Below are positions 1,901 to 40,784 of a stretch of DNA of 42,522 bases, piece after piece. The position numbers and the translations under genes were made by a program. Each line of letters starts with the position of its first letter. The stretch's first letter is position 1. The stretch spans positions 1-42,522 of the forward strand of contig NKIB01014579.1 of the NCBI GenBank assembly GCA_002256025.1, given 5' to 3'. This DNA comes from Asterionella formosa. Its lineage: Eukaryota. A model generated the notes under the pieces. That model searched no databases and was not told where the DNA came from. It saw nothing but the letters and a program-made list of their open reading frames with translations.

Positions 1901-2866
1901 CATATCTGATAACGAGGCAATGTGGTAGATTCATCATTACGTTAGAGGCACTACGTCCATAGCTTGAGGGGTGGTCAGGTACTATGTAAAACTTACCGGT
2001 TCATTTTTGTCAGCTTAACTTTGAGAGAAGGTCAACTTTTTGTCAGTTTTGTTCCAACAGAAGTGAATAGGTCCAACGAGCGACAAGAGCACTTACGCAA
2101 TTTGGTTTGGTTTTGTTTTACATTGGTGCTCCCCAACAAGCGAAACGAGCTGTTGAATCAACTGAGAAAACAGGAAATGTGCGTTTAGTTAACAATTTGT
2201 TGTTGTGCTGCCTGCCTCCCAACGATTGTCATCCAAGTACCACATTGATGGCTTCATTACCTTAATCATTCTCCCTTCTTTGAATGCGCAATGTGTCGAA
2301 GCCACAATGTTTTTCGTTATGTATTGCGAAAATTTTCTTTTCTTGTCATGTGCTTTACTACGACGTATCTTTTCATGAAGCAGCAGGCATTGTTTGTTAA
2401 CATGACAGAACGATTTCAAAAATATATATGCCATGAATATAGTAATAAAATTTGTAAATATATATATATATATATTAAGTGTTATACATTTATAAAATTC
2501 AAAGGCGCTCTCGATATGGAACATCTGATATGGTTGAGATGATCATACTCGCATATACATAATTCGAAAATACTCAATGCACTATTTGTCCATTGTTTTC
2601 CATGACTACGTGTACCGGTATTGTTTCTGAAAATTGTTTGCATTGATATTTTCTACGTCCGTTGAAACTAATTATTTAGACCGTTCAAATGCCGCAAGGG
2701 TTTTGGTAGCAAATTGTTTAAGCCCCTTTTTTGGTTGGGAGCTCTTCATGTGTACCGGTTCATCATAAACTATGACAATAACAATATATCATATATATAT
2801 ATACAGAGTACCAGTAGCAGGTAGTAAGTGATATACTGGGGGTAGTCGGAGTAGTAAACTAGCAAC

Positions 2867-3105
2867 AGAACACCATATGTTCAGGACTGTTGCTACTGCA
2901 GTGGGACAGTAAATCATCATAGTTTTAGGATCATATGATCGTAAAACTAAAACCAAATAGGACACCATTTGTTCAGGACTGTTGCTACTGCAGTGGGACA
3001 GTAAATCATCATAGTTTTAGGATCATATGATCGTAAAACTAAAACCAAATAGAACACCATATGTTCAGGACTGCTGATACTGCAGTGGGGCAGTAAACCA
3101 TCATA
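2867..3105. repeat. Tandem repeat, 92-bp unit, about 2.6 copies, with an internal palindrome
   Basis: Units start at 2867, 2959 and 3051 (agaacaccatatgttcaggactg...). Confidence 0.95.
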
Positions 3106-3642
3106 GGACAGGCATCCAAAAGGGCCCTGATAACCACCACATTGGCCCCTTCTTCTACTCCAAGGTACAACAGAGTCTTTTGCGTAGTGGCTGGTGTTGC
3201 ACCTTTGCAGCTTCAGGACAAGCTTTCAACTGGGCTTCAATAACATCCAGCCCAATAGGAATGAAATGACAGTCCGAGAAAGAGCGAAGCCAACAGGTAC
3301 ACGAATTGAATTGAAGTATCATACATATTGAGCAATGATCCGTCGGACGAATTACATCAAGAAAGGGTTGGCGATAGTGGTTGCTATCCACTAGCCGACC
3401 CGGCGCTGGCTCACAGGACTTGAACATATACATGTGCTTAACAGTACATGACGAATTAATTCAATGTTCAAGTAGATGTTCAAGACCTGGATACATGTGC
3501 TTTCTGTAGGCAATTTAGTCGGGGGAAGACACTTCAAGGCGGCGAAAAGAACCAACCTGTAGTCAAGCATGGCGCACCAATCACGATCGGTGGATACCGG
3601 TGATTCTAAACTATCATTACCCTTGTACCTGGTACTGGAACT

Positions 3643-3679
3643 CCCTCACCCTAATCCTAACCATAACCCTAACCCTAAC
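3643..3679 (+). repeat. Degenerate interstitial telomeric repeat, 6 units
   Basis: ccctca ccctaa tcctaa ccataa ccctaa ccctaa. Confidence 0.8.
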
Positions 3680-5025
3680 AGATCTGGATAAATCCTTTAC
3701 GAGATCACGCAGCAGCCACACATGGCAGCTCTATCGAAATCTTGCTTTTGAGGTGGCCCAACTTTGGCCTTTTGTGGGGGCTCCTGTGCAGTGGCAGCAC
3801 ATTTGAAATCAGTACAGGTCACCAGTTCAAATCTACAAAGGTACAAGATACAATTACATTATACTGTACAGTAAAAAAAGGCTCTCTTCTCTGTCTACGG
3901 AGGACATGCTACCGGATAGAACAACGAGGTACCAGGTACCACGTACCAATACGGCCAATATTACTCCGTGCCTGTGACTAAACAGATGTCCTGGTACCAG
4001 ACCCCAGGTACCAGGTACCAGGTAAGGCCCAGGACAATGGAGAGATTTCCCTTATGTAGAGCATCGCCACCGCATCGACCAAATACCAAAGCCAATTGCA
4101 GTTGAAAATATCAATACACATCACTTGGTTGAGAAATCTTTTATCAATAGTCGAATTACCTTAAGGTTGCGGCCCCAGCTTAACCCTAGTTCGTAGAAAA
4201 CATCGCTAGGGTTGTAAAAACGGCGTGGAACAGGGAGTTTCCTACTATGAACTCCCACGATTCGAGTGCCCATTTGAATATTTGAATTAAAATGGAATCG
4301 GCGCCAGATTGATAGAATTCCATTAAAAAATGATATTCAAACATTTATACTATTTCTTCGTTGCTGAATGTAGACATAATTTTACTCAACACCAAAACAA
4401 AAATAAATTAGGAGTATGCCAACATGTATGCTCATGGCTCGTGTTTATACGTTTATATTGAATCTACGTTGCTGAATGTAGTTTCAATATCACTCCACGC
4501 ACAAAGGTATATACCGGTGTGTGAATCAGTACCAGTACCGGAGTCCCAGAGTAATGGTATTTCGGTACTCAGAGTGCCAGGTACCAGTAGTACACAATAT
4601 TGGTTCATCATGATGAAGGACAGGATGTACTACTGGTGGTAGTACCGGTACTGATTTTACCAACCAGTATTCAGTACATCCAATACATGTGGCTCAAGTG
4701 TGGCTGGCGAGAATTTACAAGCTCTTCAGCGAATCGGGAGCAGGTGAATAAAACCAATTCAACCAATCAGAAGTTGTGTAGGGACGCGGGAACTTACCCT
4801 GGAGTCTTTTCGGACTGAGAATTATTCAGCGAAACATACCTACGCAAGACTCCACGTATACGAGAACGTTTTTGCACGTACAAATTCTGATTCCAATATT
4901 TTGGCGACTGTTGAAAAAGCCGATCGGGTCGACTTTTTGGAGGAGGATTGCGCTACATCTACGGGGTTTCATGAAGAATGAAATAGATAGCCTTGTACCC
5001 TATAACGTCAGGAGTTAACTTTTGC

Positions 5026-5134
5026 AGAGAAGTGGCAGTTATCCCTCGTAGATTTTTTTAAAAGCTTGATGGCCCCCTTTTTTTCCTTTTTTTTGGATAG
5101 TTACGATTCCAAGAGGGATAACTGCCACTTCTCT
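5026..5134. repeat. Perfect 22-bp inverted repeat with 65-bp spacer (hairpin or mini-MITE)
   Basis: agagaagtggcagttatccctc (5026-5047) and gagggataactgccacttctct (5113-5134). Confidence 0.9.
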
Positions 5135-5902
5135 CCAGAAATGAGCAGAAATGAGGTCCTTACCATATCTGTATATAGATCATACCCCTAAGTCGAGGAA
5201 TGACTGTATCTAAGCATATGTAAAGTGGTCGTATTGGTGAAAGCTAAATTTACCTTTAACTATTTTATTTCCTTGCAGGTACTGTGTAGATTAACGTACA
5301 TAATAAAATTATTTTGGAAAAACACAGACCTTGTGATGTGTAACAGCGGGGCCGCAACCCTAAGAGATATGCATAACATAATAATGTATAACATTCTTAC
5401 ATGACCATCACTCTGGTAAGTACAACAAAGTGCACTTCTACATATTGATATCAAAAGACAAACAACCGGGACTTTTCCCAAACAGGGTTGAAAAAGAGAA
5501 AACTATTCGTAAATTCAACTGCCCATTGGCATTTGCACCACAATTGCACCACCGATTGCACCACTGTTACTTAGAGAAACCAAAATTGCACCATCAGACT
5601 ATCCATATATCAAATCCGTGCTACGGCCTGCACTACCGTAGTGATATTTTCTACATAGGATCACGATCAGATTCATATAAGATATGTATTTTGTAGCAGC
5701 CAACGGCAAAAGGCTACCCGGTTCATAAAAGTAATAGGACATACCGGTACTAGTAAGTATTGCTAGCATTTTGTATCATATACCGGTATATAGGTTACTA
5801 CCGGTAATGAATTTTTAACTACCGGTAAGGCACTCCTTGCTGACGTCATATTGTCGCTGCACCACATTGCACCACCATAGACCTACTGGTACCTGTTACC
5901 GG

Positions 5903-6095
5903 TAGTAGAAACACTACATTCATAGAAGCTAGCTACCGTACCGGTAGCTAGTTTACCCACTACATTTCTTCATTGACGAGAGTTGGTGTTTGTCCCTCTA
6001 GAAAATGGGAATTTCGGTTGATTGTTGGATTTCAGCCGTTCAGCAGCCCAGCCAACACGACTGCATCGGACAGTTCTCCTCCAAATTTACGACAC
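5903..6095 (+). repeat. Left arm of a ~190-bp inverted repeat; partner at 15815-15998
   Basis: Contains gtccctctagaaaatgggaatttcggttgattgttggatttcagc, whose reverse complement is at about 15871-15915. Confidence 0.9.
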
Positions 6096-6902
6096 TCTTT
6101 TGTGAACTTTTGCGAACTTCGCGTTCTTTTGCGGTCATTTGGGAAAACGTGATGCGAGGTCGATTTTAGATAAAAAAACAGTTTTTGTACGTTACTTTTC
6201 GGACTTCAGAGTTTCTGTCAACTCCCTGCCCGGAATGATGAGCAACAATGACCGTCGGGGTCATTTACTCCATATTAAATTTAGGTGTGTATATATATTG
6301 GACTAAACTTCCACCTTTTAAGAATTATTACGGTACCAGGTACCAGCTATATATCAGTAGGTGTACCAGGTAAAACTACGAGAACTTCTCCAATAAATGT
6401 ACCTCCTGTGCATATAAAATGATACTGGTATATTCAGGACACAGTAAAGCTCGTAAATTCTCAAAATGTCTTTATGATCTCATTCGTCATGAAACAACGT
6501 CTTCTATACAAGATCCATCGTCCTGTTACCCGTTACGAAAGTTTTATGTATAATCAATTAGATATCCATACAGGAATACTGGTAAAACACTCCACAACAA
6601 AAGCCTTTTTTCATCACGACTATAAAATGCAGTCAAGTGCATACTAATTATCACGTACATATGTATATATATATATAATCATCACGTTGGACAAAAATTC
6701 CAGGATAGAAATGTGCTACGAATAGTATGACTGAATGAACATAGAGCTTGCTTGTACTGTAGAATTCCGAGAGAGGCAGTGGAAGAACTCAAGAATTACC
6801 GGTAGTTCAAACACGACCAGGACAAAAAAAATCAACAGGCAAATCAAAGCATGTAAAATTCGGAGGAGGCGGCCGGTAAAACAATCCTCAAATCAGTCCA
6901 AC

Positions 6903-8040
6903 ATGGGGAATGTCGCCTCACTAGCAGCTGCACTATTTCCACTTAAACTTGCCCATGAACACCATCAGCATGAAGCTCCAATTTTAAGTGAGCATGGTGT
7001 ACAAGCAGAGCTCATTAGGAATGGATTCTGTCTTCATCATGCAGACATTCAGCTTCGCAAAAAGAATTTGCTTGGAGGTTGGAAGACTGTGCGAGACAGC
7101 TGCCCTAATTGCGATCAAGAACGTAGGAATAATCAAGGGGCTAGTACCACTTCAATTTCGTCACCGATTGCTACAATTCTTTCAAAGATGCAAATGAATG
7201 AACGGAAGGATGACATTCAAAAAGAAGGTCTCATGGAGCTTGCGAACTTGGCTGCGAATAATGACAACAACAGTGTGACAATTGCTGCAGAAGGAGGTAT
7301 CACTACGATTCTGTCTGCGATGAAGACTCATTCCTCCAATGCTAATGTACAACAATATGGTTGTGCAGCTCTTCAGAAGTTGGCTTTGAATAATGGCAAC
7401 AAGGTGAAAATTGCTGAAGCAGGAGGTATCACTATGATTCTGTCCGCATTGAAGACTCATTCCTCCAATGCTAAGGTGCAAGAAAATGGTTGTGGAGCAC
7501 TTATGAACTTGACTTTTAATGACAACAACAGTGTGAAAATTGCTGAAGCAGGAGGTATCACTACGATTCTGTCTGCAATGAAGACTCATTCCTCCAATGC
7601 TACTTTGCAAGAAAATGGTTGTGGAGCACTTGGCTGTCAATGACAAAAACCAGGTGACGATTGCTAATGCAAAATGTATTCCTAGGATTGTGTCTGCAAT
7701 GAAGACTCATTCCTCCAATGCTACTGTGCAACACTTTGGTTGTGGAGCACTTTGTGTTTTGGCTTCAAAGAATTATAAAAACAGGGTGACGATTGTTCAA
7801 GCAGGAGGTATCACTACGATTCTGGCTGCAATGGAGAATCATACAAACAATGCTACTGTGCAAGAAAAAGGTTGTGGAGCACTTCAGAACTTGGCTGTGA
7901 ATGACTGCAACAAGGTGGAAATTGTTGAAGCAGGAGGTATTGCTGCGATTCAGGCTGCAATGGCGAATCATCAAAACAATGCTGATGTGCAAGAAAAAGG
8001 TAAAGACACACTTAACATATTGAACCAAAGTGGATCATGA
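6903..8040 (+). pseudogene. Armadillo-repeat protein (aardvark-like repeats) with a Cys/His N-terminal domain; one frameshift near 7630
   Basis: MGNVAS start, then CLHHADIQLRKKNLLGGWKTVRDSCPNC, then 42-43 aa repeats (IAEAGGITTILSAMKTHSSNAxVQExGCGALxNL). gcacttggct at about 7626 lacks 8 nt relative to gcacttcagaacttggct in a sister repeat. Confidence 0.88.
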
Positions 8041-8397: not shown

Positions 8398-10540
8398 TCT
8401 GCAAATAAAAACTATCATATTCCCATAATGCATCATAGGATTGTGATCATCTGATCATAATATTTCGTTATATCATCTAATAATTTTGATAGATGCCCTT
8501 GTAATTTAAATAGTAACCCTTTTGACTATTTTTATTTAATTATTATTATATTTTTTGTTTCTATTAGATTCCTGAATTTGAATTTCTTGGTAGGATAATG
8601 TACCAGCTAAAGTAATGTAATTTGGCTCATCATTTCCATCTGTCATCACTCTAATTTTTGCAAGAACAACGAAAAACTAGCGATGATAAGTGGAATGATT
8701 GTTTGCGATAACGTTTTCAATTGTTGGTCAAGTGATCATTTTATCTTTGAGTACTCGTCATGTGCAGTGAACCTATGTTCATAATCAATCAATTAAGAGT
8801 TTACAGAGAAGAAATCATTCGAACTTGGAATGGTTCCACACACAGAGAACAAGGTGAATCCGTTTCATCGACCAGCAGCATTACAATCGCGCCAATCAAT
8901 TCGGAAACAAACGCATTCTACTTGTTCTTGTTGAAATTTTCAATTCTCACGTGATACTACATCTACTATTGAGATTCAGCATAGAAGGAGATGATACGAA
9001 AATGTATCAGACTACTGTCCATATAGTAGTTACAGTTATAGAATGATTCTGATTACAATTTCTTTTTCATATTCCTTGTTTCCGCATTTGGGATGCTGTA
9101 CTTGTAACTGTTGAACTTGTCCGCATCTTTGTTACCATCAAGAGAGCAACAGCAAGTGGCTCGCTTCATTGTTCTTGTTTGCTCATGGAAAACCCGCCTG
9201 GTATCCATATCATCAACAATAGAGGGACAAATGTCCTTCATCATTGTGGTTTGCCACTGGAATAATTGGTACCCATATCGTCATTTGCTGGTTGGGAACC
9301 ACTGTCCATTGCCTCAAACCTGCTTACTGTGGTGTGTGTATGTACTATGTCGAATTGTGTACATTACAGCAGTGACTTCGTCTGCAAAAAAAACTATCAT
9401 ATTTCCATGATGCATCATAGGATTGTGATCATCTGATCATAATATTTCGTTATATCATCTAATAATTTTGATAGATGCCCTTGTAATTTAAATAGTAACC
9501 CTTTTGACTACAGATATTTAATTATTATATGTATTGTTTCTATTTGATTCCTGAATTTGAATTTCTTGGTAGGATAATGTACCAGCTAAAGTAATGTAAT
9601 TTGGCTCGTCATTTCCACCTGTCATCACCCCGATTTTTGCAACAACAACGAAATACTAGCAATGACAAGCGGAATGAAAGTTTGCGATAACGTCTTCAAT
9701 TTGTTGGTCAAGTGATCATTATATCTTCGAGTAATCGTCATGTGCAGTGAACCTTTGTTCATAATCATTCAATTACGAGTTTACAGGAGAGAAGAAACCA
9801 TTCAAACTCGTTATGGTTCCGCACACAGCGCACAAAGTATATCCGTTTTGTCGACTTCAGCATGACAATTTCACCAATCAACCCGAAAACAAACACATTC
9901 TACTTGTTCTTGTTGACATTTTCAATTCTCACATGATACAATATTTACTATTGAGATTCAGCATAGAAGGAGATACGAAAATGTGCGTAACAGACTACTG
10001 TCCACATAGCTATAGTTATAGAATGATTCTGATTAGAACGCATTTCATTTTCATATCGCTTGCTCGTTTCTGCATTTGGCATACTGTACTTGAATTAACT
10101 ATTGAACTTGTCCGCATCTTTGATACCATCAAGAGAGCGAAAGCAAGTGGCTCTTTTCATTGTCGTTTGCTTTAGGAAAAATTTGATATCCATATCGTCA
10201 TTTGCTTATTGGAATTGTCCATTGCCTCAAAACTGCTTGGCGTGTGCGTACACGCACTGTTGACTTGTTTTCATTGGTATGTTGTTCTTGTATTCACTGT
10301 TGAACTTGTCCGCATCTTTGTTACCATCAATAGAGCGACAAGTGGGTTTCTTCATTGTTGTTTGCTCCTGGAAAAGTCGGTGTCCGTGTCATCCTCATCA
10401 ATAGAGAGACAAGTTCTTTCGTTGGAAAAATTGGTACCGTATCATCATTCGCTCGTTCGAACCGCTGTCCGTTGCCTCAAACCTGATTAGCGTGTGAGTA
10501 TGTGCACTGTCGACTTGTGTACATTACAGGCGGAGTGACT
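8398..10540. repeat. Diverged tandem duplication of a ~980-bp unit plus a partial third copy
   Basis: tctgcaaa..aaactatcatatt..cat.atgcatcataggattgtgatc at 8398 and 9381. ctgttgaacttgtccgcatcttt-like motif near 9108, 10099 and 10297. Confidence 0.9.
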
Positions 10541-13999: not shown

Positions 14000-15810
14000 T
14001 GGACCATTGGGATTATCCAATGTCATCATTTCTTAGGAAATTGTAGTTTGTGAAAACCTCATAATAACCAATTTAGTATGTGAAGCTACATTGTTACCAT
14101 TTTCATTTATATTATTCTTGTGTATTTATCAACGTTCGTTTGTTGTTTTTGTTCCCACCCGATTGATTTCCATAAATGATGTGGAGGCATGGCAACATAA
14201 AAATTATCTTTCCGTATTTGTTCCAAAACTTCTTGCGCGCGGTTTCAGATATTTCCTTGATTCCTGTGGTTTCAAAGCAGGTAAACCAAATGCTGTCGAA
14301 AGTATGTTGTGAAATTCAACAACGTTCAATTCAGTTGTATCATTACATAAGGTGTCTCGCTCCTCTTGCAAAAACATACGTTTATGAATTTTCATTTCAG
14401 TTGAACTTTTCAAGGAACGAATACACGCTAAGAGAATGGTTGTTGTATTGGAAAAAATAACATTTGCTTCCCCACAGAAGTAGTTTTGCCAGAACTGTGT
14501 AGGAACTTGTGTCTGCAAAAAAACTGTTTCCCTGATCGTATTTATAAGATCACGGGTATCATACGAGAACTGGCACAGAATTTTTCTGTGCATAATACAT
14601 ATTTCGTCATATGTATGATAAATGCATACTATGAAAGTGGACAGGCTAAGCTTATTTTTAATAATCAAACAACCATATAATTGAGAGGATGTACATTCTT
14701 TTATCATATATCTATCCTCATATGATGGTAACTCTAATCGAAATAGCTGTTAAAAATAGCTTGGATTGTAATTTTACTGTTATATAACGAAATCATTTTT
14801 ATGTTTCTACATTTTCTGCAGTTGCTTAAACAGCCAATGTTCCCCTTTTCCATTGTCTCAATGCTCTTGATGCATGCCTCCCCCCTCCCTTCAGGCAGTG
14901 CTTGTGAGGATGCATGTCTCCCCCGCCTCCCTTCAATGCTCTTGAGGATGCATTGCCTCCTGCCTTCAAATCTCTTGATGCATACTACCTCCCGCCTCCC
15001 TTCCACTCTGTTTCTGAAACTCGTCTGACTACTTGCTGCAAATCCCATTCCCTTTTGATCCAATTCTGATTTCGCATGCGCTATTTCGTTCCTGTTCTAT
15101 CCATTTCGATTTCCTAATCATACTAACGATGAGAAGGAATTACTCGCTTGCTAACCATGTTTCGTTTATATCTCAACACTGCAGTCCCATTTCAGCATGC
15201 TCCACTTACCAGAAGTCGATGAACTTTTCGCATAATTCAGTAAAATAATGTGTCAGTCAATGATCACATAAGTACAAATCAATAAACCGTTCCGCCAATG
15301 TCATTTATAACTTACAACAAAAATCTTTGATTAAAATTATCCTGAAAGATTGAAAAACAAACATGTGTCTGTGATGTTCTAAATGTGGTTCATTGATCCA
15401 ACAAGAGCATTTACAATTTTTTGGTCGACATTGGTGGTATCCCGCTGAATGCGAAATGTGCTTTTGAATTGCTAGGGAAGGAGGCCAATATTTAGTCTTT
15501 GTGAACCCAAAAATTTATCACCTTGGCATGTACTCTTGACATACCATAGCTAGATTCAGTTCACTCTTCCATTTTCAATTCTTCTAAGCCGCAAGGTTTG
15601 TCATCATTGGGTGCGTTGAAGCGTCGTTCTCTCAGTTTTCCTTGTCACAGGGGAGAGATTATCTTTCATTCCAGGATCATAGCTATGTTACCGGTATGGT
15701 CGATTTCAAGCAATCATGAGCGAGGCAGCAAAATATTCAGGAATTAGGTCAACAATGTTGCTTGTTGAAAAGGGCTCTGGGACAAGGGTTTCCTCTGCAT
15801 CATGGTGGAA
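14000..15810 (-). pseudogene. Heavily degraded ORF, possibly a MULE-type transposase
   Basis: Starts just inside the inverted-repeat arm. TTELNVVEFHNIL weakly resembles the MULE TxNxxExxHxxL motif. Many stops and frameshifts. Confidence 0.3.
14860..15004. repeat. Minisatellite, 4 imperfect units of ~33-37 bp
   Basis: aatgctcttga(gga)tgcatg.ctcccc.cctcccttc repeated. Confidence 0.85.
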
Positions 15811-15814
15811 AAGA

Positions 15815-15998
15815 AGGTCGTAAATTTAGAGGAGAACTGTCCCATGCAGTCGTGTTGGTCTGGCTGGGCAGCTGAAATCCAACAATCAACCGAAATTCCC
15901 ATTTTCTAGAGGGACACACACAAACTCTCATCAATGAAGGAGTGTATTAGATAAGCTAGCTACGGTAGCTAGTTTTTATAAATAAAGTGTTTCTACTA
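15815..15998 (-). repeat. Right arm of the ~190-bp inverted repeat; partner at 5903-6095
   Basis: gtcgtaaatttagaggagaactgtcc...agtgtttctacta is the reverse complement of the left arm, with substitutions and small indels. Confidence 0.9.
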
Positions 15999-16568: not shown

Positions 16569-16825
16569 GATGAGTTGGATTTCAGTTTTACCGGACACTT
16601 CGACATTTACGTAGGTCAGATATGAATAGGCTACATACAATATATTCCACACACGAGTGTACCATAGGACGGAATCCAGAATCCGTTCGTACGCCATACT
16701 TGATGTCGAAATCAACAGAACGACATCATAAATAATATTTATTATCTTTTATTTCTATCATATACATATATATATTTTGTTCAAGGAGCATGGTGATATG
16801 GTACATTACCTGTAACCTGGTACCA
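16569..16825 (+). repeat. Dispersed repeat; second copy at 34949-35176
   Basis: Shared atttcagttttaccggacactt, aggacggaatccagaatccgttcgta and gttcaaggagcatggtgat...ctgtaacctggtacca. Confidence 0.9.
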
Positions 16826-17314: not shown

Positions 17315-17757
17315 TGTTATAGGCTCTTCTATACAGACCATATAATTGTTTACTCTCACTGTAGAGATTTACACTATAAAACATCAACCGTAAGTGAAAG
17401 GTGTATCTACCCTTTTACATTACGCACACGACTACTACCATGGAACCCATACGTAGTACATATACATGTAAACAAGAGTGATCATGATTAGTACGTGATG
17501 CTATACACACGGTTACTAGTATGTAGCTCGTAGTACATACTGCATTATGTACCCGCAGCTAGTATATGTTACGTGATAACTATTAGTACAGATGTATCTC
17601 TAGAATACCGGTAGACGTACCAATGCTAGGCTAAAACATGACACCTAGCATGGACTCTTGACACCTAGTACATGCCCTTCTCATCAAGACCCTTGTGAGT
17701 CCCCTTGGACTAGGAGCTAATATAGACACACTAATCATTAAGCTCATAATTACCCAG
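17315..17757. mobile_element. Possible solo LTR
   Basis: Non-coding, begins TGTTAT, has internal short repeats (tgacacctag twice) and is flanked by aacct at 17310-17314 and 17758-17762. The right end is AG rather than CA. Confidence 0.3.
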
Positions 17758-22482: not shown

Positions 22483-22958
22483 TACCGGTAGCATACTGCT
22501 ACAAGCAGGATGTATTTCCTACAGGGCAGGTAATTAATTTATATAATATAGCCCACTTAAGTAAAAGAGAACAATTGGCAACTGTATTTCTCTGTGTCCG
22601 GCGGTGGCATACTGGGGTGCTTTCATTGTGATATGTTCAGCAGTTGTTTATATTTTGCTTTTACCAGGATACATTATATTGACTTGTTTAATGCCGCCGT
22701 CCCTCAGATGGTGACGGTGTGCTATCCAACTCCATGTTGATGGATCCTTCTGTATGCAAAATGAACAAGTTTACAAAACAAGCATCACCATGTATGTATC
22801 AATCCGGGAAACATCAATAAAGAAGAGCATGAACTTAAATTCCAAGTCACAGTTTCACAAAACGTACCATAATTGATAATCAAAATTTAACAGTAATGTA
22901 ATTATAATAATAAATACTAGTTGATCCTCCTAAAAATAACCATAATGATCATTTCCCC

Positions 22959-28649: not shown

Positions 28650-28651
28650 TA

Positions 28652-29445
28652 CCGTAAAACCTAGTGTCTTGTATCCCCCCTGATACCTGTACCCCCCTTC
28701 GTACATCTGGCACAACACCCCCAAATATTTTATGTCTACAGAAAAAATAACAGCATATTATTGTATTCTAGCTATTTATTAATACATTTACTATAATTGT
28801 ATTCTTACCAGTCACCATCATGAAACAAGAATCAACAACAACACGAGCGATGCCAATGACATTTGCAATGGCAATATCCTTGTCCTGAGATCAATTTCAA
28901 AAGTCAAAGCTGCAACTTGCATGCTTGTTGTGGAGCGATTATCAAGCTGAATGCTAAAGGCTCAGGCAGTTCTGGTCTTGATGTTGTCGGCTTGCCGGAA
29001 GTGTTCACAGAATCATTTCGTCTGCTGCCTCATGATGCAGAAATATTTCGTGCATGTCATGATTCTGGTCGAACAATCATATAAGTGATGTGGTTGGCTT
29101 ATATTAATTTCCATCACGATCCAAGTCGTAGAGTCTACACAAGTTAATACCGTTGTAGGATTAGGTACAAATGGGTACACACACCTGGAATTACTATTGA
29201 TGTCATCACAAAACTCGGGAGCACCGGTGCACCAAAAATAGAAATTCTATTGATCATAGAAACTGTTTGAACTTTCAACAATATATCTTTTAATATTGCT
29301 AATTACGTTTTAGACTACGGGGAAACGGTGGTGAAGTTGGTTTGCTCGCAATGTTGGATTATCAAAAAAGGTCCGATGTCTTGTACTCCCCTCTAAGTAA
29401 AATCAGTCATGGCTGTGTACATTGAGGGGTACGAGACACCAGGTT
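28652..29445. mobile_element. Non-autonomous deletion derivative of the pogo family at 40570
   Basis: TA|ccgtaaaacctagtgtcttgtatccccc...gaaaaaataaca matches 40570-40669. Remnant SCNLHACCGAII matches the accessory ORF. Opposite TIR ggggtacgagacaccaggtt (29426-29445) lacks its last bases. Confidence 0.85.
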
Positions 29446-31035
29446 GTCCCAATGATTGTTCACATCCTCCATAATGCCTATTCTCTCAAGAACAATTTTC
29501 TGGAAATCTGCACCATTCCCATATACATTTGTTGGAGCAAATAACGTTCAAGCATCTCCAGAAAGCCACGCACCATACATCAGCATCTGTTTTCATCTGA
29601 TGATGTTCAGCAGGACTAATTCTAATTGGTTCTGATTCATTGCTCCCACTCTTTCGCTTTTTTGCTTGTTCCAATCCATCTCCGTTGCCATTGTTGATAG
29701 CATCATCCATCACTATAAGTTCTTGTTCAGAAATTTTCGTTGACAATGGCTTACTCTGACTGCCTGCTAAAAGCCTTGTCAATACACAATCTTGCTCCCA
29801 TGATGACACTTTCAACTGTGAAGGGAGGGCAGGAACAAATTTCAATTTGGTGGTGACAAAGCAGAAATAGCTACATTTCCGATTTTGGAAGGAATGCCGC
29901 CCTGTATACTTGTACTTGTTGGCCACCTTGAATGATCTCTAGAATGTTCGGTGGAGAACTCATGAGAGGAAGCACCTTGCTTGTTGACCACCCTTATCAT
30001 TGAAGCTAAAATAAACTGTGCTGCATCCTCAATTGAGTATTTCTGGAGCATGTACAATTGCAATTGGTCTGCTTGTAGCTCTCTTTGGCTCATGATGGTC
30101 AAATTGGTCAGATACGGCTACTTGCGGTGCACACTGGAGACAAAGTAGATCTGGAGATATTCACCAACATTGTCAGAGGGAATGAAGCCAATGTAATGAC
30201 ATGATGGAATCTGCATCCAACCGAAAGCAAAAAAAATATCATACCAGCTCTACTATGGCTACCCAACCTTTAGTCTTCGTGCACCCAGCCATATATACCG
30301 GTAGTGTCTTCCATATATCATCACATATCAAAAATGCATGCAGTATATGTAATACTGTATGCATGCATCCTCATCAGAATACCGATACCGGTACCAGGTT
30401 GTACCAGGTACAGTAAATACATACTAGGAGTCTTATGTGAAGAGTGAATTTCTATTTGCAAATTGTCCTGGCTGATTCGCAACATGAGTATTAGACGTAA
30501 GACCAGTATATGTCAAAAAGCGCCAATTTCATTTGCCTTTTTCATAAATTGTAAGTCCTACGGAACCGATACTACAGTACATGCGTTCAAAATTTCCAAC
30601 ATTTATTTGTATCCATCCATACATAGTTCCTTGTTGCATGCCTGCTGAAGAATCAAGTGAGGAGGATAGTACTGTACGCAAGCAGATCTTTACGCGCTCC
30701 CGGGTATATTTTTGTTACGCACGCCGGTCGTGTATGTATATTTCGTTCACTCTTCTTCGCTTCTTTCTATGCATGCTATTTGGAGTGCTTTTGTGTTCTG
30801 GCCATTGTAGAATGGTTGACCACATATTCGTACGCCGGTTTGACGATGATATTGAGAGCGATTGCTTGTTTCTTTCGCGCATCAAGAATGAGGAAAGAAG
30901 CAACAAGGTCTGCTTTCTTAACAAGCGTGGTACCGGGAAAAGTGAATACGTCACATTTTTTTAATCCTCCATAAATTCTGTTTTCACTTTTGTTCTCTCG
31001 TCGTCTTTTTTGAGACCGTTGACAACAAGACCAGC

Positions 31036-32667
31036 ATGTCGTCAAGCAACAACAATAACAAGAAGAATGATAATGCTGGAGGAGGGAAGAAGGAACCTCA
31101 TGGCAACCTGCAATTCCTTGGAGGTTCCGACGAAGTGAATCCTCTAGCTTTGTAAATTCACCAGCAAGAATCTCATTCACAACTTGGCGCATTTCCAGTA
31201 AGAGGACCAGGATTCATTCCACAGGATGATTCATTTTTGCATGTCGCCACTGCTCTTGCTGGCACTAACAACGTTCGGGATGATCATGGTCAGCCGGAAC
31301 CTAGACCTGCACCAATTCTCAATGAGGTTTTTGTCAAAGATCCTGAAATTGCCAGTTCCTCTATTGCTGACCAAAAAGCAGTCGAAAAATCCCAGTGCTG
31401 GCCTCAATGGTGGAGAGTCTTGGCAACAGTTTTGGTGATTGGCATCTTAGTTTCCATCATTGCTATTGTCATAAAGAAACTGACAGAACCAGGATTATCA
31501 GCAAGACCAACATTGGCTCCGTCAGCAAGCCCGTCTCAAAGTTTGTTTGGGTTCTTGGCTGGACATTCATTTGATAATGAAGCAGCACTTTCAACTCCTG
31601 GCTCCTCACAACAATTGGCACTGTCGTGGTTGCAGCAGTTGACACTAGATAATATGCCCAGAGACTATACTTTGTTGCAATTCTATGCCTTGGCAGTTTT
31701 CAATTATGCGACTGGTAATACACTTTCAAACAATACATGGCTGCAAGGTAATAGAACTGCTTCTCAATACGATTTTTGTGATTGGGAACACATTGGTTGC
31801 GAAGGTGGGCCAGATATCACTGATTTGAGTCCTACTCAATTATTTGATGGATCCCTTCCGCCCGAGATTGGACTCTTGACCAGTCTCACTCTTCTAGATT
31901 TGTTCTACAATAATTTCAATCGCACACTTCCCACAGAGATTGGTTTCTTGACAAGGCTCAATTATCTACAGGTCGGAATCAATGAGTTCACTGGCACTCT
32001 TCCCATAGAGATTGTACTCTTGACAAGTCTCAATTTCCTAAGCTTTGGCACCAATTCTTTCCGTGGCACACTTCCTACAGAGATTGGACTCTTGAAAACT
32101 CTCACTCATGTAAATTTTGACACCAATATGTTCAATGGCACAGTTCCCACGGAGATTGGACACTTGACAAGTCTCACTCTTCTATGGTTGCACAAGAATA
32201 AATTCACTGGCACACTTCCCACAGAGATTGGACTCTTGACAAGTCTCAATTATCTTGATTTGCACAGCAATAATTTCAGTAGCACGCTTACCGCAGAGAT
32301 TGGACTCTTCACAAGTCTCACTTATCTAAACTTTGGAACTAATACATTCACTGGCACACTTCCTGCAGAGATTGGAAACTTGACAAGTCTCACTTATCTA
32401 AACTTTGGAACTAATACATTCACTGGCACACTTCCCGCAGAGATTGGAAACTTGACAAATCTCACTTATCTAAACTTTGGAACTAATACATTCACTGGCA
32501 CACTTCCCACAGAGATTGGAAACTTGACAAGTCTCACTGCTCTATATTTGGACAACAATAAATTCACAGGAACAGTGCCAGCTGAGATATTTCCTGGACT
32601 TTACACAAGTCTCATTCACCTAGCATTGGAGAACAATTCATTCAATGGTTCAGTCCCTGATTTGTGA
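31036..32667 (+). CDS. LRR receptor-like type II membrane protein with one in-frame TAA at 31153-31155 (recent pseudogene or allele)
   Basis: ATG 31036 is in frame with ORF 31237-32667. GAFPVRG motif, TM VLATVLVIGILVSIIAIVI, Cys cap FCDWEHIGC, and about 11 plant-type 24-aa LRRs (LTxLxLxxNxFTGTLPxEIGxLTS). Confidence 0.88.
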
Positions 32668-33280: not shown

Positions 33281-33313
33281 GGTGGTGGTGGTGGTGGTGG
33301 TGGTGGTGGTGGT
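33281..33313. repeat. (GGT)11 microsatellite
   Basis: Read directly from the sequence. Confidence 0.98.
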
Positions 33314-34269
33314 AAACATTTTGTTCAACAGCATGTTTGTGGATGGAGACAAATCAACGTCATGTACACTTATGTTGATCTAGTCCAAAAAATACCACCT
33401 GATGCTATGCAGGAATTTTAAAGAGGCACTTGAGGATTGTCAACTCTACCCTCTTCAAAGCTGTGTCGAGAAACCCGAACAATACCATACGATTGACAGC
33501 CGCCATTGGATCCTTCATGGGTAGATTTTAATCTGACAAGAAAATGGATGAAATGAGCTTGACATGACGTGCTGGCTATGTCATTTTCTCAAAGGGCAAA
33601 TTTATATTGGAAGGAAACAAGCAAGGTGGAACCAGCTCTAAGCAACCTCATGGAGGATTCGCAGTATGGGGAACACAAGTTATTTCATCATCACCAAAAG
33701 TTTGTGGAGCTTGGTATTGAGATTGGAACTATCGGAAATGGATGAGAAAAAGTCTTGGGGTCGGATTTGACAAAGGTGCATATTTCCGTCAATGCGGATT
33801 ATTGCAGTTAAGCATTGCTTATTTTTCAACCCAGTCATTGCACATGACATTACTAATAGACAATAAATAAACTGCATACTAAAGTTGCTATGCTTAATGA
33901 TGACTTCATATTATCATTACATTCTAGTATCGTGTTCATCAATGGCTTGTTTCTTTGCATAATTTGATGAAGCACTCTAACTAGACTTTATAGCAATGGG
34001 TGGAATCGATTCTAGAAACTGAACAAGACGAGTGAGTTGCAAATTAATTTGAAAACATTTAATTACATTCCTTGTTTGGTATCAATTCAACATTTCAATA
34101 TTTCCGCTTTCCAATTTAAGCCTTAAAATTATTTAATAACATGACGATGACATTGAGAGCAATTGCTTCTTTCACGAAAAAATGATTACATTATTATAAT
34201 TAGGATACTTATCCTCCATTAATTCTGTTCTCTCTTCGACTTTTTGATACCGTTCACAACAAGACCAGC

Positions 34270-34835
34270 ATGTCATCAAGAAACAATCATTACAAGAAGA
34301 ATGATGATGATACTGGCCTCTATGCTCATCCTTCTGTAGAAGAAGAACCACAGGAGGAATAGAAGGAAGCCACTGCTTTGAAGGATTCGGCAGCGATGAT
34401 GCTCCCTCAAAATGCCAAGAAAAAGTCTGTTGGATCTAGCAAAGAAATCCCGTTTGCAGAGGAGCCGAAAGTGGTTTACCAAGACCAGAAAGACAACACT
34501 TATATTGCAGAAGATACTTGCAGTTGTTGTGCCTCAAGATCACAATCAGACAACGATTCTTCTGACTGTCCTTTTAGCTCCTGTGGTATTGTCTACAGCT
34601 CCACCTCGACAAGTTGTGGCAGCACAATCACTGCAACAAGCACAACCTGGCGCATTTCCAGTATGGGGACCAGTGAGGATTCATTCCACACGATGATGAT
34701 TCCGTTTTGCATGTCGACCCTGCTCTCGCTAGGACCAGCAACGAGGTTCAGGATAAACATGGCCAGCTGGAACCTGCAACACTATTCAATGCTGGTCTTA
34801 GTTATCGATGATCCTGAAATTGCAAGTACCTCGAT
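34270..34835 (+). pseudogene. 5' fragment of a third LRR-family paralog (cytoplasmic N-terminus only)
   Basis: Leader acaacaagaccagcATGtc as at 31036, plus QPGAFPV and DDPEIASTSI motifs. Contains a stop and frameshifts and ends before the TM segment. Confidence 0.75.
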
Positions 34836-34948
34836 TATTGGATCATGGCCTGACGTGAGAAGCGGCCTAACAGATCATCGTCAATGACCACATTGAAACC
34901 ACACAAATGCAACTGGTCTGCAGCATAAGGCTGGTTGCATCAAGCTGT

Positions 34949-35176
34949 GATGAGTTGCATTTCAGTTTTACCGGACACTTTTTCATTTATGTAGATCAGA
35001 TGCGAGTGTACCACAGGACGGAATCCAGAATCCGTTCGTATGCCATCCTTGATGTCGAAATCGGCAGAATGGCGCGATAAATATTATTTTTTATTTCTAT
35101 ATCACATATATACCCTATATATATATTATGTTCAAGGAGCATGGTGATGAGGCACATAACCTGTAACCTGGTACCA
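34949..35176 (+). repeat. Second copy of the dispersed repeat at 16569-16825
   Basis: Direct sequence match with an internal deletion of about 30 bp. Confidence 0.9.
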
Positions 35177-35309
35177 GGTACCCTGCAAGTTGCGGTCATT
35201 TTGCCGAAAATGGAACGCGGCGCCGGCAAGCACTCATATTCGACTCCCCGCTAATATTACTTAAACATTTAGAAAACTCTAACGGTTTCGCGCTGGCCAA
35301 TAAATTTCA

Positions 35310-36255
35310 TTATTAAGCGAAAAAGAAAGAAACGACCTCTGGTGTCAAGGGAAGAGTCATGTTGGTGGAAGAAGTTCCTCACAAACGAAAAGCGCATCTT
35401 ACAATTGGACATGAACACATGGGAAGCACGACTCTTTCGCAAAAATTTTCGTCTTCCATTCGACATATTCTTGAAACTGTATGATATGACAATATCTAAT
35501 GGTTGGTATGATCCGCACAGGAAAGATTGCACCAATCTTCTGTGCAAGGACCTTGAGTTGCTCCTCCTGGGTGTTCTCTACACTCTAGCAACCGGTGCTT
35601 CCCATTTGTATTTGTATATTCAAACTGACATCTCTTAAGAGGTACACCGAAAATTTTTCATTCACTGGACTTAAAGTTTGCAGAAAAGAAGGATGAATAT
35701 GTATACATACTGAGAGAGGAAGTGGAAGATGACCAACTGCAACAAATTCTAAACGATTACAGTTCCATTGGGCTTCCAGGTTGTATAGGCTCAGTCGATT
35801 GTGTGCTTATTGGATGGAATCGATGTCCTGCCTACCAGAAGAATATATTTAAAGGTTCCAAGGGGTATCCTTCAGTAGTTTTTGAGGTGGTTTCTGATCA
35901 CAGAAGAAAGATTTTATCAATCAGCTACCTACACCCAGGAACAAAAAATGACAAACACATATTCAAGTTTGATGCTGCTGTTTCCAATCTACACTCTATA
36001 AATTCGTTTCTTGGCAGGCAAGAGTGGAATGTGCTCACTGTTGAGTCTTCTATTACTTGTAAAGGCTACTATTTCATTTGTGATGGAGGGTACCTACAAT
36101 GGCCAGTGTTGATTTGTCAAATTAAATATGGCGATGAACATGGAAAAGAAAGGGCATGGGGTATGATGGTGGAGTCAGTTCAAAAAGATATTGAATATAC
36201 TTTTGGTATATTGAAAAGTCGATGTGTTGAAGTTCACAACCAGCAGCAAATATAG
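35310..36255 (+). pseudogene. PIF/Harbinger transposase (HARBI1-like nuclease) pseudogene
   Basis: FRKNFRLPFDIF...GLPGCIGSVDCV...PGTKNDK...YFICDGGY...ESVQKDIEYTFGILKSR, with stops and a frameshift at about 35636-35700. Confidence 0.92.
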
Positions 36256-37659
36256 CTAATGGCAATCTGCGCACTTCCAAGCATGTGCACTTGAATGGGG
36301 CTGCCTATCCAATATCGAATATGGTCGCAAAAGGAATGCTCCTCCTCAGTTGAGTATTATGTTGGTCCTTCAGTCACCATTGTGATAATAGAGAGATGCT
36401 GGTGGTGGGAGCAGAGAAGAAAGGAGATAGGACGATGTGATGTTGACAATTTTCATTATAATTAATTACTATAATATTCCTGCGGATGAGACTATGGTAC
36501 TAATTTTCATGTAGGAAATAAATTTCAATTCTCGAGATCGGTCATTTGACGTATGGATTGACATACTATTAATCTTTGGGACCGTAAGGTGGCCATAAAA
36601 TTTCCCGAATACGAAGATCGAAGATTTTGCCGCGATAGCTTCGCAATATTCGATTTTCGTATTTCGTGCACCGAAGTTTCAGCCTACCGGTAAGTGGTTG
36701 TGGTAAAGATCGGTATGCACCATACATAGGAGATCGACGTAGTACATCCATCTTGCATCCCTGTACCGTATGCATACCGGTATCAAATACCGATTCATAA
36801 TGGTACCAGACTACTGGTACTGGTACCAGGGACCACCCTGGTACAATTGACTTCATGTCAGTTAATGGTTGTTAGTAAATAGCTACAAGCACGTACCGGT
36901 ATGTTCTTGAAACATGATGTTTGCCGGTTTGGTACCAGTACCGGTAACATGATGACAAAGATGATACGCCTATTGTAAACAGATAAATCACGAATTATAA
37001 ACCAATTGTTGTTTTCAGCTTCTGATATTATGGAATATGTCTACATGATGTACAACGGTTATGTGCGAACTACTCGGGTATTGATCCAGCAAGAAATCAT
37101 GGAGATATTATCGTTGCGGTCGAACGCCATGCATGGAGCTTCGTCCGCCGATTTTCAATTTTAGCTATTTCGCAATGAATATCAAAGCTACCTGTTCGTT
37201 TCTTTCACTACTTGCTAGCGACACGTGTATTCTATCTAAGAAACTAATAATAGTGTTAAGCAGTTACACAAAATCGAAAATTAATAATCATTTAATCATG
37301 GTGATGGGAAATTTCTCATGTTGTTTCGATTTATACATATAACCGTATGTTCATGTACAGCTACCGGCATAACGCTTTATGTATTCCCGGACATGTGCAC
37401 TCATTGGCGGGGGTCGACTATCATGTTCTTTGATCCCTCTCCTGTGCCCGCATCTGACCCCGACGGAATCTAGCTCTCCGGTAAAACCCCCCAATTTTTT
37501 TGGATTGGGGGAATGAGTTTGACCGTAAAATAGTTCTTGCCAAATCAAATTCTAGCATAATAATATTCAAAACGATCATGCCACGAATGAAACATAACCG
37601 TTTTCCGAGCTAGCCAGATTGGCTGCGTCACTCCAGAAAAAAGTATGTTACTTGTGCTA

Positions 37660-37903
37660 ATTTTCTGGCGCACAAGTGCGCCAAAATTTGGAAAATCAAT
37701 TCATCATAGAAACCGATTCAACCAAGAACAATAACACTTTTTATTAGCATTTCTATGTTTTCAACTATGGAGAAGAGCGTGGATATGACGTTTTGATCAA
37801 CAGAAGTTGGCAATGCCAAAATCGCCATCATCCAGTCTCCCCATCTAAGTAAATCTAGTCATGGCTGTGTACATTTGGGGAGACCGAAACACGGGATTTA
37901 CGG
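37660..37903. mobile_element. Terminal remnant of a related pogo-family element
   Basis: Ends agtcatggctgtgtacatt...acacgggatttacgg|TA and is homologous to about 29210-29445. Confidence 0.75.
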
Positions 37904-38189
37904 TAGGTCATACCGGTATATGAGTGATCGACTTATGTTCATGACAAGACTCAAAGATATGTATGAGTAAAGATTGACTCATGTTCATGACTACCGGTAG
38001 ACCCAAAAAGGTCATGACTGGACTAATTTGGAGACACATTTACGCACGCCGGTCGAGTATGTTTATTTCGTTCACTCTTCTTCGCTTCTTTCTATGATTA
38101 CGTGACATTTAGCGATTCTCCATCATAAATTCTAAATTCACTTCTGTTCTCTCGTCGTCTCTTTTGAGACCGTTGACAACAAAACCAGC

Positions 38190-39224
38190 ATGTCGTCAAG
38201 CGACAACAATAACGAGAACGCATTTCCAGTAAGAGGAGCAGGATTCATTTCACAGGATGATTCCTTTTTACATGTCGCCATTGCTCTCGATAGCACTAAC
38301 AACATTCGGGATGATCATGGTCAACCGGATCCTGCACCTTACCCAATACGCAATGAGGTTTTTGTCGATGATCCAGCTGAAATCGCCAGTGGCTCTATTG
38401 CTGACGAAAAAGTAGTTGAAAAAGCCCAGTGTCGGCCTCAAAGGAGGTGGAGAGTCTTGGCAACAGTTTTGGTGATTGGCATCTTAGTTATCATCATTGC
38501 TATTGTTGTCAAAGGGAAGTCCAAATCATCAGCAGACCCATCTCCTACATCATCACCTTCATCATCACTTTTATCATCACTTACATCATCACCTACATCA
38601 TCACCTACATCATCACCTACATCATCAACTACATCATCACCTACATCATCACCTACATCATCAACTACATTTTCACCTACAACCTTTTCTTTTTTTTGAT
38701 GAAGGAGCAGCACTTTCAACTGATGGCTCCTCACAACAAAAGGCACTGCAATGGTTGGAGCAGTCGACTAATAGTGCCTCTGGCTATACTTTATTGCAAT
38801 TCTATGCCTTGGCAGTGTTTTATTATGCCACTGGTGAAACCCTCTCAACCTCTAAGCTATGCATGGTTGCAAGGAAATGAAATTGTTTCTGGATACAATT
38901 TTTGTAACTGGGATTACACTATTTGCAATGGCGGGATAGATATCATTGATTTGACACCTTCTTCTGAGTCTCAACTTTTTGGATCCCTTCCGCCAGAGAT
39001 TGGTCTCTTGACAAGTCTTTAAAAAAGGTATAGATTTGTCTGTCAATAAGTTCAATGGCACACTTCCCTCAGAGATTGGATGCTTGACAAGTCTCAAATA
39101 TCTAGATTTGGGCATCAAAAACTTCTCAGGTTATGTGCCATCTGAGATTTCGAATTTACTTTTAACAAATCTTGGTAAGGATTGTTCTCTAACCCAAGGG
39201 CGTTGTGGTTGTGTCCCTCTTTAA
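38190..39224 (+). pseudogene. LRR membrane-protein paralog, frameshifted, with only about 2-3 LRRs
   Basis: Same leader, AFPVRG, TM, FCNWDYTIC cap and GSLPPEIGLLTSL as 31036-32667. Frameshifts near 38695, 38855 and 39025; the 3' flank is homologous. Confidence 0.9.
38546..38680 (+). repeat. 12-bp coding minisatellite (acatcatcacct) encoding a Ser/Thr/Pro stalk
   Basis: About 11 units translating as TSSP/TSST. Confidence 0.95.
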
Positions 39225-40784
39225 CAGTGGCCCACATGTGTAATGCACAGCAGAGTTTAATAACTAAATATTATATGGACATATTAAGGATTCTTTTTTA
39301 GTTCCATTCATATTCATATAATTATGATTACAAATAGTTCCATCTTTTATTTTATACAATGCGAAATAACAGTAAGTAATACGTATCAGGCATATACCGG
39401 TAGACAAGTAATTGCTATATAACATATTCAGTAGTGCAATATATATAGTGTTGAAACAATATATTAGAGATTCCTGATTCCAGATCAGATTATGAAAATG
39501 TCAACTCTCTCAATTCTGACTCCGGTATTAACGATTGGAAGCAGGTCCGGTAATCAGTGTACATATCGTGCAGGTTGCTCGTTTTCTGTTCATCGATGCA
39601 CATACTGGTATGTACGAGAAAAGGCAGGGATACATCCCCAAATACTATGTATATTGGTAATGATATGTCCAGCTGACAACGAGCAATGGTGGTACATGGT
39701 GGATATGATCATCATGCATATTGTTCATATATCTATACTTTGTCGCATTCACAAATATTGAACGTTCCTCAACGGTTGCTATCTACTGGTCGTACCAAAT
39801 CGTCATGAAGGAAAGTGCGTATGTAAATATATATGCAATTGTTTGTATAATATATTCCTGTTTACGAACGATTTGAAATGTGAATATATTGATATATGAA
39901 TATATTAATAGTACATCTTATTATCTCTAGTTGCTATGTATCTACAGTTACCCTAACGGTAGGAACTATACATATCCATATAGACCCGTATGTACAATCA
40001 CAATCACCATGCAGCCAGTCAGTATGTACTGTATGGCGCAGGATCATGATCATTATCAACATAATTCATCATTGGCTTGGGTTGACAGCATGATGTTTGT
40101 CCCACAAAAATGTTGTGTACAGTACTGAGTACTTTTTTTTTCAATACAGTTTCATTCTCATCATGTCGATGTTTCATCGTCTCCTTCGTCCTCTTCTTGT
40201 TGTTGTTGTTCTTGTTCTTGTTGTGGTGTTGAAAGGGGCTTTGTGTAAATGATAGAAAACAGTCACACATATCACCTACCGATATTTATCAATATTGCAT
40301 ATTATATGAAAGGGCTTTTGGGATAATTGAATTTATGTATAAAAAGTGTATAAATTAGCTACCATCTGGCTGTACATAAACTCATATACATATAGTAGAA
40401 TAAAGGATGAATCTTGTGTAAAATAGTTGCATGACTGATGAGGACAGCTTGAGCAATTAGGTAGTACGAGCTATTTAGTTACATCAGTACAATTCCTTGT
40501 CGTAGCGGTATGAGGTATATTGGAAAGATATCGATCGGTACCAGTACCTGGTATGGAATAATCTATATACCGTAAAACCTGGTGTCTCGTATCCCCCCAG
40601 ATACCTGTACCCCCCTTTGTACATCTGGCGCAACACTCCCAAATATTTCCTGTGTACAGAAAAAATAACACAACATAAACGTATTCTATTTATTAGTATG
40701 TATTTTCGTATATTACCGGTACCCTACTGTTTCCGGTAAAGTATCATCACCTGTAAAATATCGTCACATATACCGGTTGGCAAC

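Follow-up and report, generated by a model that had tools for sequence, protein, structure and literature searches.

The window analysed here, a 42,522-nucleotide stretch of the diatom Asterionella formosa (contig NKIB01014579.1 of assembly GCA_002256025.1, positions 1 to 42,522), contains 23 exact copies of the 8-bp palindrome TACCGGTA, which is composed of TA, CC, GG and TA. The same window carries pogo transposons, whose ends begin with CCG and finish with CGG at a TA target. We favor, with moderate confidence, the interpretation that the 23 copies are excision scars of CC...GG-ended pogo elements that insert at TA. The interpretation is built on the abundance of the word, the termini of the resident elements, exact 6-bp differences at a TA between homologous copies, and the way in which the word decays.

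Abundance and distribution of the palindrome

The number of copies in 42.5 kb lies far above every expectation that we calculated. In 100 dinucleotide-preserving shuffles of the window the mean count was 0.22 and the largest 3, with none of the 100 reaching 23, and Markov models of order 1, 2 and 3 predicted 0.18, 0.39 and 1.34 copies, respectively. By frequency, TACCGGTA ranks third among all 8-mers here, behind only two (TA)n words. Drift by point mutation is an unlikely source, because the word is built from dinucleotides that are under-represented in the window (observed/expected ratios of 0.75 for TA and 0.63 for CG). An earlier note, made from the letters of the window, had listed 23 coordinates and had called the word over-represented; every coordinate proved to be an exact match, and the excess of 23 copies over 0.2–1.3 expected agrees with that statement. 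The note had also placed none of them inside intact open reading frames (ORFs), which is right for most copies. Stop-to-stop frames of at least 90 codons occupy 51% of the window, and 20 of the 23 copies lie outside them (P = 2e-4), giving a density of ~1 exact copy per 900 bp of non-ORF DNA. The copies at 6797, 36685 and 36775 fall within such frames, the latter two in a 100-codon minus-strand frame that has no Pfam match. The copies are also strongly clustered, a feature absent from the earlier note.

The repeated unit ends at the two TAs. ACCGGT occurs 30 times in the window; T precedes it in 28 of these cases and A follows in 23 of those 28, and the filler between the two TAs reads TA-CCGG-TA in all 23 copies. 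Across the 12 positions on either side, the 23 copies share no consensus and their flanks are unrelated. Palindromy is also absent from the flanks, where a mean of 3.4 of 12 positions are complementary compared with 3.1 in the background. A longer consensus or palindromic flanks were ruled out by this comparison.

Three other origins were tried and rejected. One dispersed repeat family does not supply the copies, as all but two self-alignments of the window miss the motif copies, and an upstream element of small-RNA genes was discarded in a window that has no Rfam family or tRNA. Pairing the copies at 37911 and 39395 as terminal repeats around a leucine-rich repeat (LRR) paralog gave a match of 16/18, which is at chance level given ~1,000 possible pairings by our own estimate. 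In the alignment of the upstream regions of the LRR paralogs, homology ends short of the motif copies.

Termini of the resident pogo elements

The homology between two pogo copies of the window begins at TA-CCGTAAAACC (28650 and 40568). The copy at 40568 is cut by the window end and encodes a transposase that matches the Pfam domain DDE_1 (1e-22). A metagenome scan provided 28 loci, three of which (L001, L002 and L003) are short contigs of the same pogo family, with 97–99% DNA identity. L001, which is 97.9% identical to the window copy over 1,958 bp, holds a complete element of 2,436 bp, CCGTAAAACC...GGTTTTACGG, with TA as its right and TG as its left flank. Its terminal inverted repeat spans 29 nt with 93% complementarity, and its transposase is intact (408 aa; PF03184, DDE_1, 5.5e-23). 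L002 is a derivative with an internal deletion. Nearly identical copies, accompanied by this derivative and by older remnants, suggest a young and probably active family.

Complete distant relatives of 1.9–2.5 kb were identified in seven of the 28 metagenome loci (L004, L005, L007, L011, L012, L014 and L017). Their transposases show 30–38% protein identity, and all seven elements end in TA-CCGTAT...ATACGG-TA. Judging from these ends, the terminal CCGTA is a conserved trait of a deep pogo clade. The ends TA-CCGT...ACGG-TA that the earlier note had read in the window were recovered there, in L001, in L002 and in all seven distant relatives. No pogo match was obtained in viral contigs scanned with the transposase and the terminal repeat, nor in genome contigs scanned with the terminal repeat. 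The window element resembles pogo, Tigger and Lemi1 of the Tc1/mariner group in its DDE_1 transposase, N-terminal helix-turn-helix region, terminal inverted repeats and TA target duplication; it differs from them as a stramenopile-type lineage with conserved CCGTA termini.

Putative scars were found 4–40 bp from three of the six pogo ends examined. The TACCGGTA copy at 37911 lies 4 bp past the flanking TA of a pogo remnant, TACCGGTACCGTA lies 37 bp from the end of L002, and TACCTGGTA lies 15 bp from the end at 40568.

Presence and absence of the word between homologous copies

Seven motif sites could be aligned with a homologous copy. Two of them are clean indels, one at an alignment edge is compatible with an indel, three are common to the copies compared, and one is not evaluable. 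The first clean case is internal to pogo, in copies that are ~98% identical: L002 reads GCC-TACCGGTA-TATGT, the window reads GCC-AACCGGTA-TATGT, and L001 reads GCC-TA-AATGT, with 58 identical bases on the left. The second belongs to a duplicated block of the window, which has TACCGTACCGGTA at 5934 where the paralog has TACCGTA, a 6-bp indel bordered by 9 matching bases on its left side and by 8 on its right. The two clean cases, independently of each other, differ by exactly 6 bp at a TA (2/2).

At the edge of the same block, the site at 5897 shows AATAGTAG in the paralog versus TTACCGGTAGTAG, which fits a 6-bp indel with a poorly aligned left flank. At the 2613 site, the copy of the repeat that flanks the L001 element has AACCGGTC plus extra bases. 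The 22483 site adjoins the end of an inverted duplication, where there is no usable alignment. At none of the seven sites has the word arisen by several substitutions from unrelated sequence. A tally of 3–12-bp indels over 15,229 aligned repeat columns yielded 52 rows, many of them in coding repeats; four independent 6-bp indels are among them, and two of these four are the TACCGGTA event. The alignment of paralogs with a count of indels, which the earlier note had suggested, returned two independent clean 6-bp indels of TACCGGTA versus TA and, within the limited data available, favors the reading of the note.

A different indel was observed in the pogo alignment. At alignment columns 1933–1940 (window ~41.3 kb), the CCTAATAGG of the window, L001 and L002 is replaced in L003 by CCTAGCTAATAGG, a 4-bp indel that changes TA into TAGCTA. 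TAGCTA occurs 22 times in the window compared with 6.8 expected (3.2-fold), and it may be a second scar type, derived from another element.

Related words and decay of the word

All TA-X-TA words were scanned, and the most enriched filler of each length class was taken. The filler CCG/CGG was observed 12 times with 3.3 expected, and 9 times after removal of the three true element ends (3.3 expected, P = 0.007); TA-CCG-TA and TA-CGG-TA, named as scars in the earlier note, are indeed the most enriched 7-mers of their class. CCGG was observed 23 times with 0.39 expected, CCAG/CTGG 15 times with 1.8 expected, and CCAGG/CCTGG (TACCAGGTA/TACCTGGTA) 10 times with 0.41 expected. Double units were also seen, namely TACCGTACCGGTA at window 5934 and the mirrored TACCGGTACCGTA in the L002 flank.

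The one-mismatch variants of TACCGGTA are dominated by a single kind of change. The CpG transition occurs 15 times (about 1–1.8 expected) versus 0–4 times for each other change, and positions 1, 2 and 3 are altered about equally often (5, 7 and 5). The doubly deaminated TACTAGTA is present 4 times compared with ~0.5 expected. These variants look like the products of neutral decay dominated by CpG transitions. By our own estimate, which uses small numbers and no fitted model, the loss amounts to ~23% per CpG cytosine and ~4% per other position. As a rough estimate, the average scar age would lie within the range of pogo divergence, which is ~2% for the young copies and 13–24% for the old ones.

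Proposed origin of the word by excision

Excision footprints are textbook knowledge, although each is regarded as a rare, isolated event. When a Tc1/mariner element excises, the cut in the non-transferred strand lies a few bases within it. A cut-and-paste pogo element would insert at a TA, duplicate the TA and later excise, leaving a scar in which the first and last few element bases stay attached to the two TAs; excision of this kind may have made the 6-bp insertions. Joining of CCG/CGG 3' overhangs via a 2-bp CG overlap, or filling in of 2-nt overhangs, would produce TACCGGTA, and a full 3-nt overhang overlap with a central mismatch would produce TACCGTA or TACGGTA. The scars would then decay as neutral DNA, chiefly by CpG transitions, to TACTGGTA and TACCAGTA and then to TACTAGTA, and the young intact pogo family would supply new ones. 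Clusters of scars may come from insertion hot spots, from local hopping or from re-use of earlier scars. The density of the word is not implausible: by our own arithmetic, which assumes neutrality and decay at eight positions, it requires scar formation at ~1% of the per-base substitution rate.

Similar footprints have been described for related transposons. Excision of Tc1/mariner elements leaves the first or last 2–4 element bases between TAs, for example TACAGTA/TACTGTA for Sleeping Beauty, in the relevant passages of PMC6943129, and a footprint of 0–4 bp is given for Passer, a member of the pogo superfamily, in those of PMC9976928. The likeness to these footprints consists in a duplicated TA around terminal bases, the filler here being CC plus GG, CCG or CGG, as in the resident pogo termini. 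The published footprints appear singly in excision assays or revertants, whereas in the window they would have accumulated to the density given above. No paper claiming that footprints make over-represented motifs was found, in a search that included diatom occurrences of the word and Phytophthora pogo footprints.

Alternative explanations

The clean indels, the element ends and the 7-mer enrichment speak for the scar reading that the earlier note had proposed; the following points weigh against it. The data basis is one 42.5-kb window and three short contigs. The indels are unpolarised: the older pogo derivative lacks CCGG at both internal sites but is ambiguously aligned, and because of this ambiguity of the outgroup copy a 6-bp deletion between short repeats is still conceivable. 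In the window and L001–L003 there is no locus that is occupied in one copy and scarred in another, and the TA at window ~2559, the counterpart of the L001 insertion site, bears no scar. TACCGGTA is absent from the flanking sequence of the seven distant, complete relatives (6.2 kb), a sample too small to weigh much. The copy at 5799 may be kept in position, as TACTGGTA, in a paralogous upstream region, according to a weak alignment. TACC(A/T)GGTA, the runs of CCAGGTA and the excess of GGTACC do not follow simply from the overhang model. The clusters, for which the scar reading has no ready explanation, are tight, with six exact copies in 205 bp and four in 262 bp; they require insertion hot spots, and homotypic clusters upstream of genes would look like transcription-factor sites. 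Finally, the same word is reported to be over-represented in oomycete promoters and is taken there as a binding site.

The oomycete data are given here as they stand in the passages of the papers that concern the word. TACCGGTA is the predicted promoter motif M94 of Phytophthora infestans (Roy et al. 2013, PMC3597505). The entry next to it is M93, TACATGTA, with 4,150 copies in promoters (PMC3597505). Motif-9, which matches TACCGGTA, lies upstream of 1,284 genes and shows a 3-fold enrichment for genes of the RXLR type (Seidl et al. 2012, PMC3520976), and the Plasmopara halstedii counterpart is ATACCGGTAT (PMC10031896). The word of the window and M94/motif-9 are the identical 8-mer, non-coding and abundant in both cases, and the oomycete word is tied to effector genes. 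The oomycete papers differ in that they take such words as transcription-factor sites, and the string 'transpos' stands nowhere in the text of PMC3597505.

It is unlikely, though of some weight, that TACCGGTA is a dimeric transcription-factor site conserved in stramenopiles and selected in promoters, the two indels being coincidental. Such a site would suit an exact 8-bp palindrome in homotypic clusters: gaps of at most 120 bp make up 10 of the 22 gaps between copies compared with 2.5 expected for random placement in the non-ORF half of the window, and 0 of 20,000 simulations reach 10. Some clusters also lie 60–280 bp upstream of candidate starts (5742–5946 before the block at 5903–6101, and 37911/37992 before the LRR paralog ATG at 38190), the 5799 copy may share its position with a paralog, and the word is the oomycete promoter motif described above (PMC3597505, PMC3520976, PMC10031896). 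However, transcription-factor sites arise by substitution, and here a 6-bp indel at a TA was found in both clean cases, one of them inside a transposon. The variants show no position specificity; their pattern is that of the CpG mutation bias, and positions 1–3 decay evenly. The −1 and +1 spacing variants, which would normally break a dimer site, are enriched as well, and copies are present in the pogo 3' subterminal region. In the passages that name M93 and M94, the six motifs tested with reporters include neither of them, and the text of a protein-binding microarray survey of P. infestans factors contains neither CCGGT nor ACCGG.

Another sequence-specific process is improbable as the source, whether a different TA-inserting, CC...GG-ended family of MITEs (miniature transposable elements with inverted repeats), slippage of CCGGTA/CCAGGTA, or a nuclease or methylase acting on ACCGGT. 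A filler of four bases cannot identify the element responsible for it, the CpG depletion noted above shows that methylation-type decay acts here, and other words are in excess too. Tandem runs of the heptamer CCAGGTA (GGTACCAGGTACC) at 3928–3941, 4007–4024, 6332–6345, 30390–30410 and 35170–35182 co-localise with TACCGGTA clusters, and GGTACC occurs 24 times compared with 4.2 expected. Some of the GGTACC copies, however, belong to the terminal region of a Harbinger-associated repeat. Only pogo and Harbinger transposases, and no other Tc1/mariner type, were found among the 59 window reading frames scanned, and the window has no TACCGGTACCGGTA or CCGGTACCGG arrays, so that slippage of a 6-mer is not seen.

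Least probable of all is a subterminal motif of transposons that the transposase may bind, as in Lemi1/Emigrant, and that degraded copies and not excision have spread: two copies do lie 140–200 bp from the pogo end in the young elements, the 2613 copy is within a repeat family, the terminal repeat includes AACCTGGTG, which is similar to the +1 variant, and pogo-like Lemi1 proteins bind subterminal repeats according to the pertinent part of PMC1636448, but the flanks of the 23 copies have nothing beyond the 8-mer in common, neutral decay would erase the 8-mer as quickly as the flanks, and repeats are detectable around only four copies (two in the duplicated block, at 5897 and 5939, one at 2613 and the pogo-internal one at 40714). 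Of the two copies inside pogo, one is itself polymorphic for the presence of the 6 bp. The subterminal motifs of Lemi1 are repeats of the 3' half of the terminal repeat, and in this TACCGGTA is unlike them.

Features and gene content of the window

Table 1. Copies of the palindrome, related words and pogo sequences in the window.
Feature	Position	Strand	Description
TACCGGTA	2613–2620		In a repeat family that also adjoins the L001 pogo copy; L001 right flank 82% to window 2560–2630
TACCGGTA	4643–4650		In ORF-poor stretch 1900–6735; nearby TACCAGTA at 4530 and 4582, GGTACC at 4580
Six TACCGGTA	5742–5946		At 5742, 5781, 5799, 5820, 5897 and 5939; also TACTGGTA at 5884 and TACCGTA at 5934; just upstream of block 5903–6101
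Duplicated block	5903–6101	+	Reverse copy at 15809–15998; 84% over 200 columns
TACCGTACCGGTA	5934–5946		Two adjoining scar-like units
TACCGGTA	6797–6804		62 nt past the ATG of the 302-aa ARM-repeat ORF 6735–7643
TACCGGTA	15689–15696		Exact match
TACGGTA	15961–15967		TACCGTA on the other strand; in the paralogous block; shorter state of the 5939 site
TACCGGTA	17606–17613		Exact match
TACCGGTA	22483–22490		Adjoins outer end of inverted duplication 20277–20724 / 22059–22482
TACCGGTA	24614–24621		Right-hand 6 bases GTAGAA in common with site 5897
Older internally deleted pogo derivative	28650–29445	+	One end intact (TA-CCGTAAAACC), the other degraded
Two TACCGGTA	30296–30393		At 30296 and 30386, 90 bp apart; followed by GGTACCAGG and TACCAGGTA
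Four TACCGGTA	36685–36946		At 36685, 36775, 36894 and 36939; between Harbinger transposase and pogo remnant; also TACCGTA at 36764, TACTGGTA at 36812 and 36818, TACCAGTA at 36933
Pogo 5'-end remnant	37663–37906	+	Ends in ...GGGATTTACGG-TA; 72.6% identity to L002 8–219
Two TACCGGTA	37911–37999		At 37911 and 37992; the first follows the TA flanking a pogo terminal repeat
TACCGGTA	39395–39402		Exact match
Pogo element cut by the window end	40568–42522	-	TA at 40568–40569, terminal repeat from 40570 (CCGTAAAACC...), transposase ORF 41417–42520
TACCGGTA	40714–40721		Within pogo, ~145 bp from the element end; shared by the three young copies (window, L001:2501 and L002:1705)
TACCGGTT	40771–40778		Within pogo; here TACCGGTA in L002 and only TA in L001

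The genes of the window comprise ARM-repeat and plant-type LRR genes, a Harbinger transposase and the pogo (DDE_1) transposase. The protein clusters nearest to the LRR protein come mostly from diatoms, and the ones nearest to the pogo transposase (ESM Atlas) mostly from Oomycota, both being feature-based leads and not alignments. The relatives of a 364-aa ORF are environmental only.

Several repeats were observed in addition. Interstitial telomere-like (CCCTAA)n of 3–4 units, on one strand, is present at 967–996, 3650–3679 and 5356–5363, within the ORF-poor stretch, with AACCCTAA occurring 6 times and TTAGGGTT 0 times. Further repeats at 2864–3139 and 5020–5140 are a 92-bp tandem repeat of 3 units, which contains a 30-nt palindrome, and a separate MITE-like hairpin, in which a 33-nt inverted repeat encloses a 55-nt loop. 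The arms of the inverted duplication at 20277–20724 / 22059–22482 are ~450 bp long and 77% identical and enclose ~1.3 kb. A tandem duplication at 8404–10400 has a period of ~980 bp and units that are 89–95% identical, and it contains no motif copy. TATTTCGT was rejected as a second motif, as its copies are mostly inside duplicated segments.

The 5' regions of the plant-type LRR genes (30715–31343, 34199–34743 and 38040–38374) belong to three paralogs with a common 42-nt block, TTACGCACGCCGGTCG...CTTCTTTCTATG. The block is identical in two of the three regions, ~100–450 bp upstream of the ATG, and is a candidate family-specific regulatory or 5' untranslated region element. A segment of ~60 bp (…TTCAAGGAGCATGGTGAT…ACCTGTAACCTGGTACCA) occurs at 16770–16825 and 35110–35182; the second copy precedes the Harbinger transposase at 35629–36252, and the segment is probably the terminal region of a Harbinger element family.

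Implications for stramenopile intergenic DNA

The cyanobacterial highly iterated palindrome HIP1 (GCGATCGC) is found in both coding and non-coding DNA and is not known to be tied to a transposon. The earlier note had compared TACCGGTA with HIP1, and the comparison holds as an analogy only, in that both are 8-bp palindromes far above expectation. It does not extend to the spread of HIP1 through coding DNA, since most copies of TACCGGTA avoid long ORFs, and TACCGGTA matches transposon ends.

Both oomycete words, M93 and M94, have the form TA-NN-N'N'-TA, and the oomycete data therefore fit an origin as scars as well as they fit binding sites. A CA...TG-ended element of the Tc1 type would be expected to leave a scar of the form TACATGTA. 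Tentatively, and with more doubt than we attach to the scars of the window itself, we suggest that the scars of one pogo clade could write an over-represented palindrome into stramenopile intergenic DNA, and that M94 and M93 could be scars of CC...GG-ended and CA...TG-ended elements, respectively, and not primarily transcription-factor sites. Scars may attract further insertions, which would lead to the tight clusters, and some of them may later have been taken over as regulatory sites.

What is new here is that ordinary footprints would reach a density that shapes k-mer composition and would be able to pass for a regulatory motif. If scars do make an 8-mer ~60-fold over-represented, the discovery of palindromic motifs in promoters would need a control for transposon scars, and the TA-NN-N'N'-TA motifs of oomycetes would be an immediate case for it. 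The number of scars and their CpG decay would also serve as a fossil record, revealing cut-and-paste activity that does not show in copy counts. Transposons would then be a direct source of short promoter insertions in diatoms, an ecologically important group.

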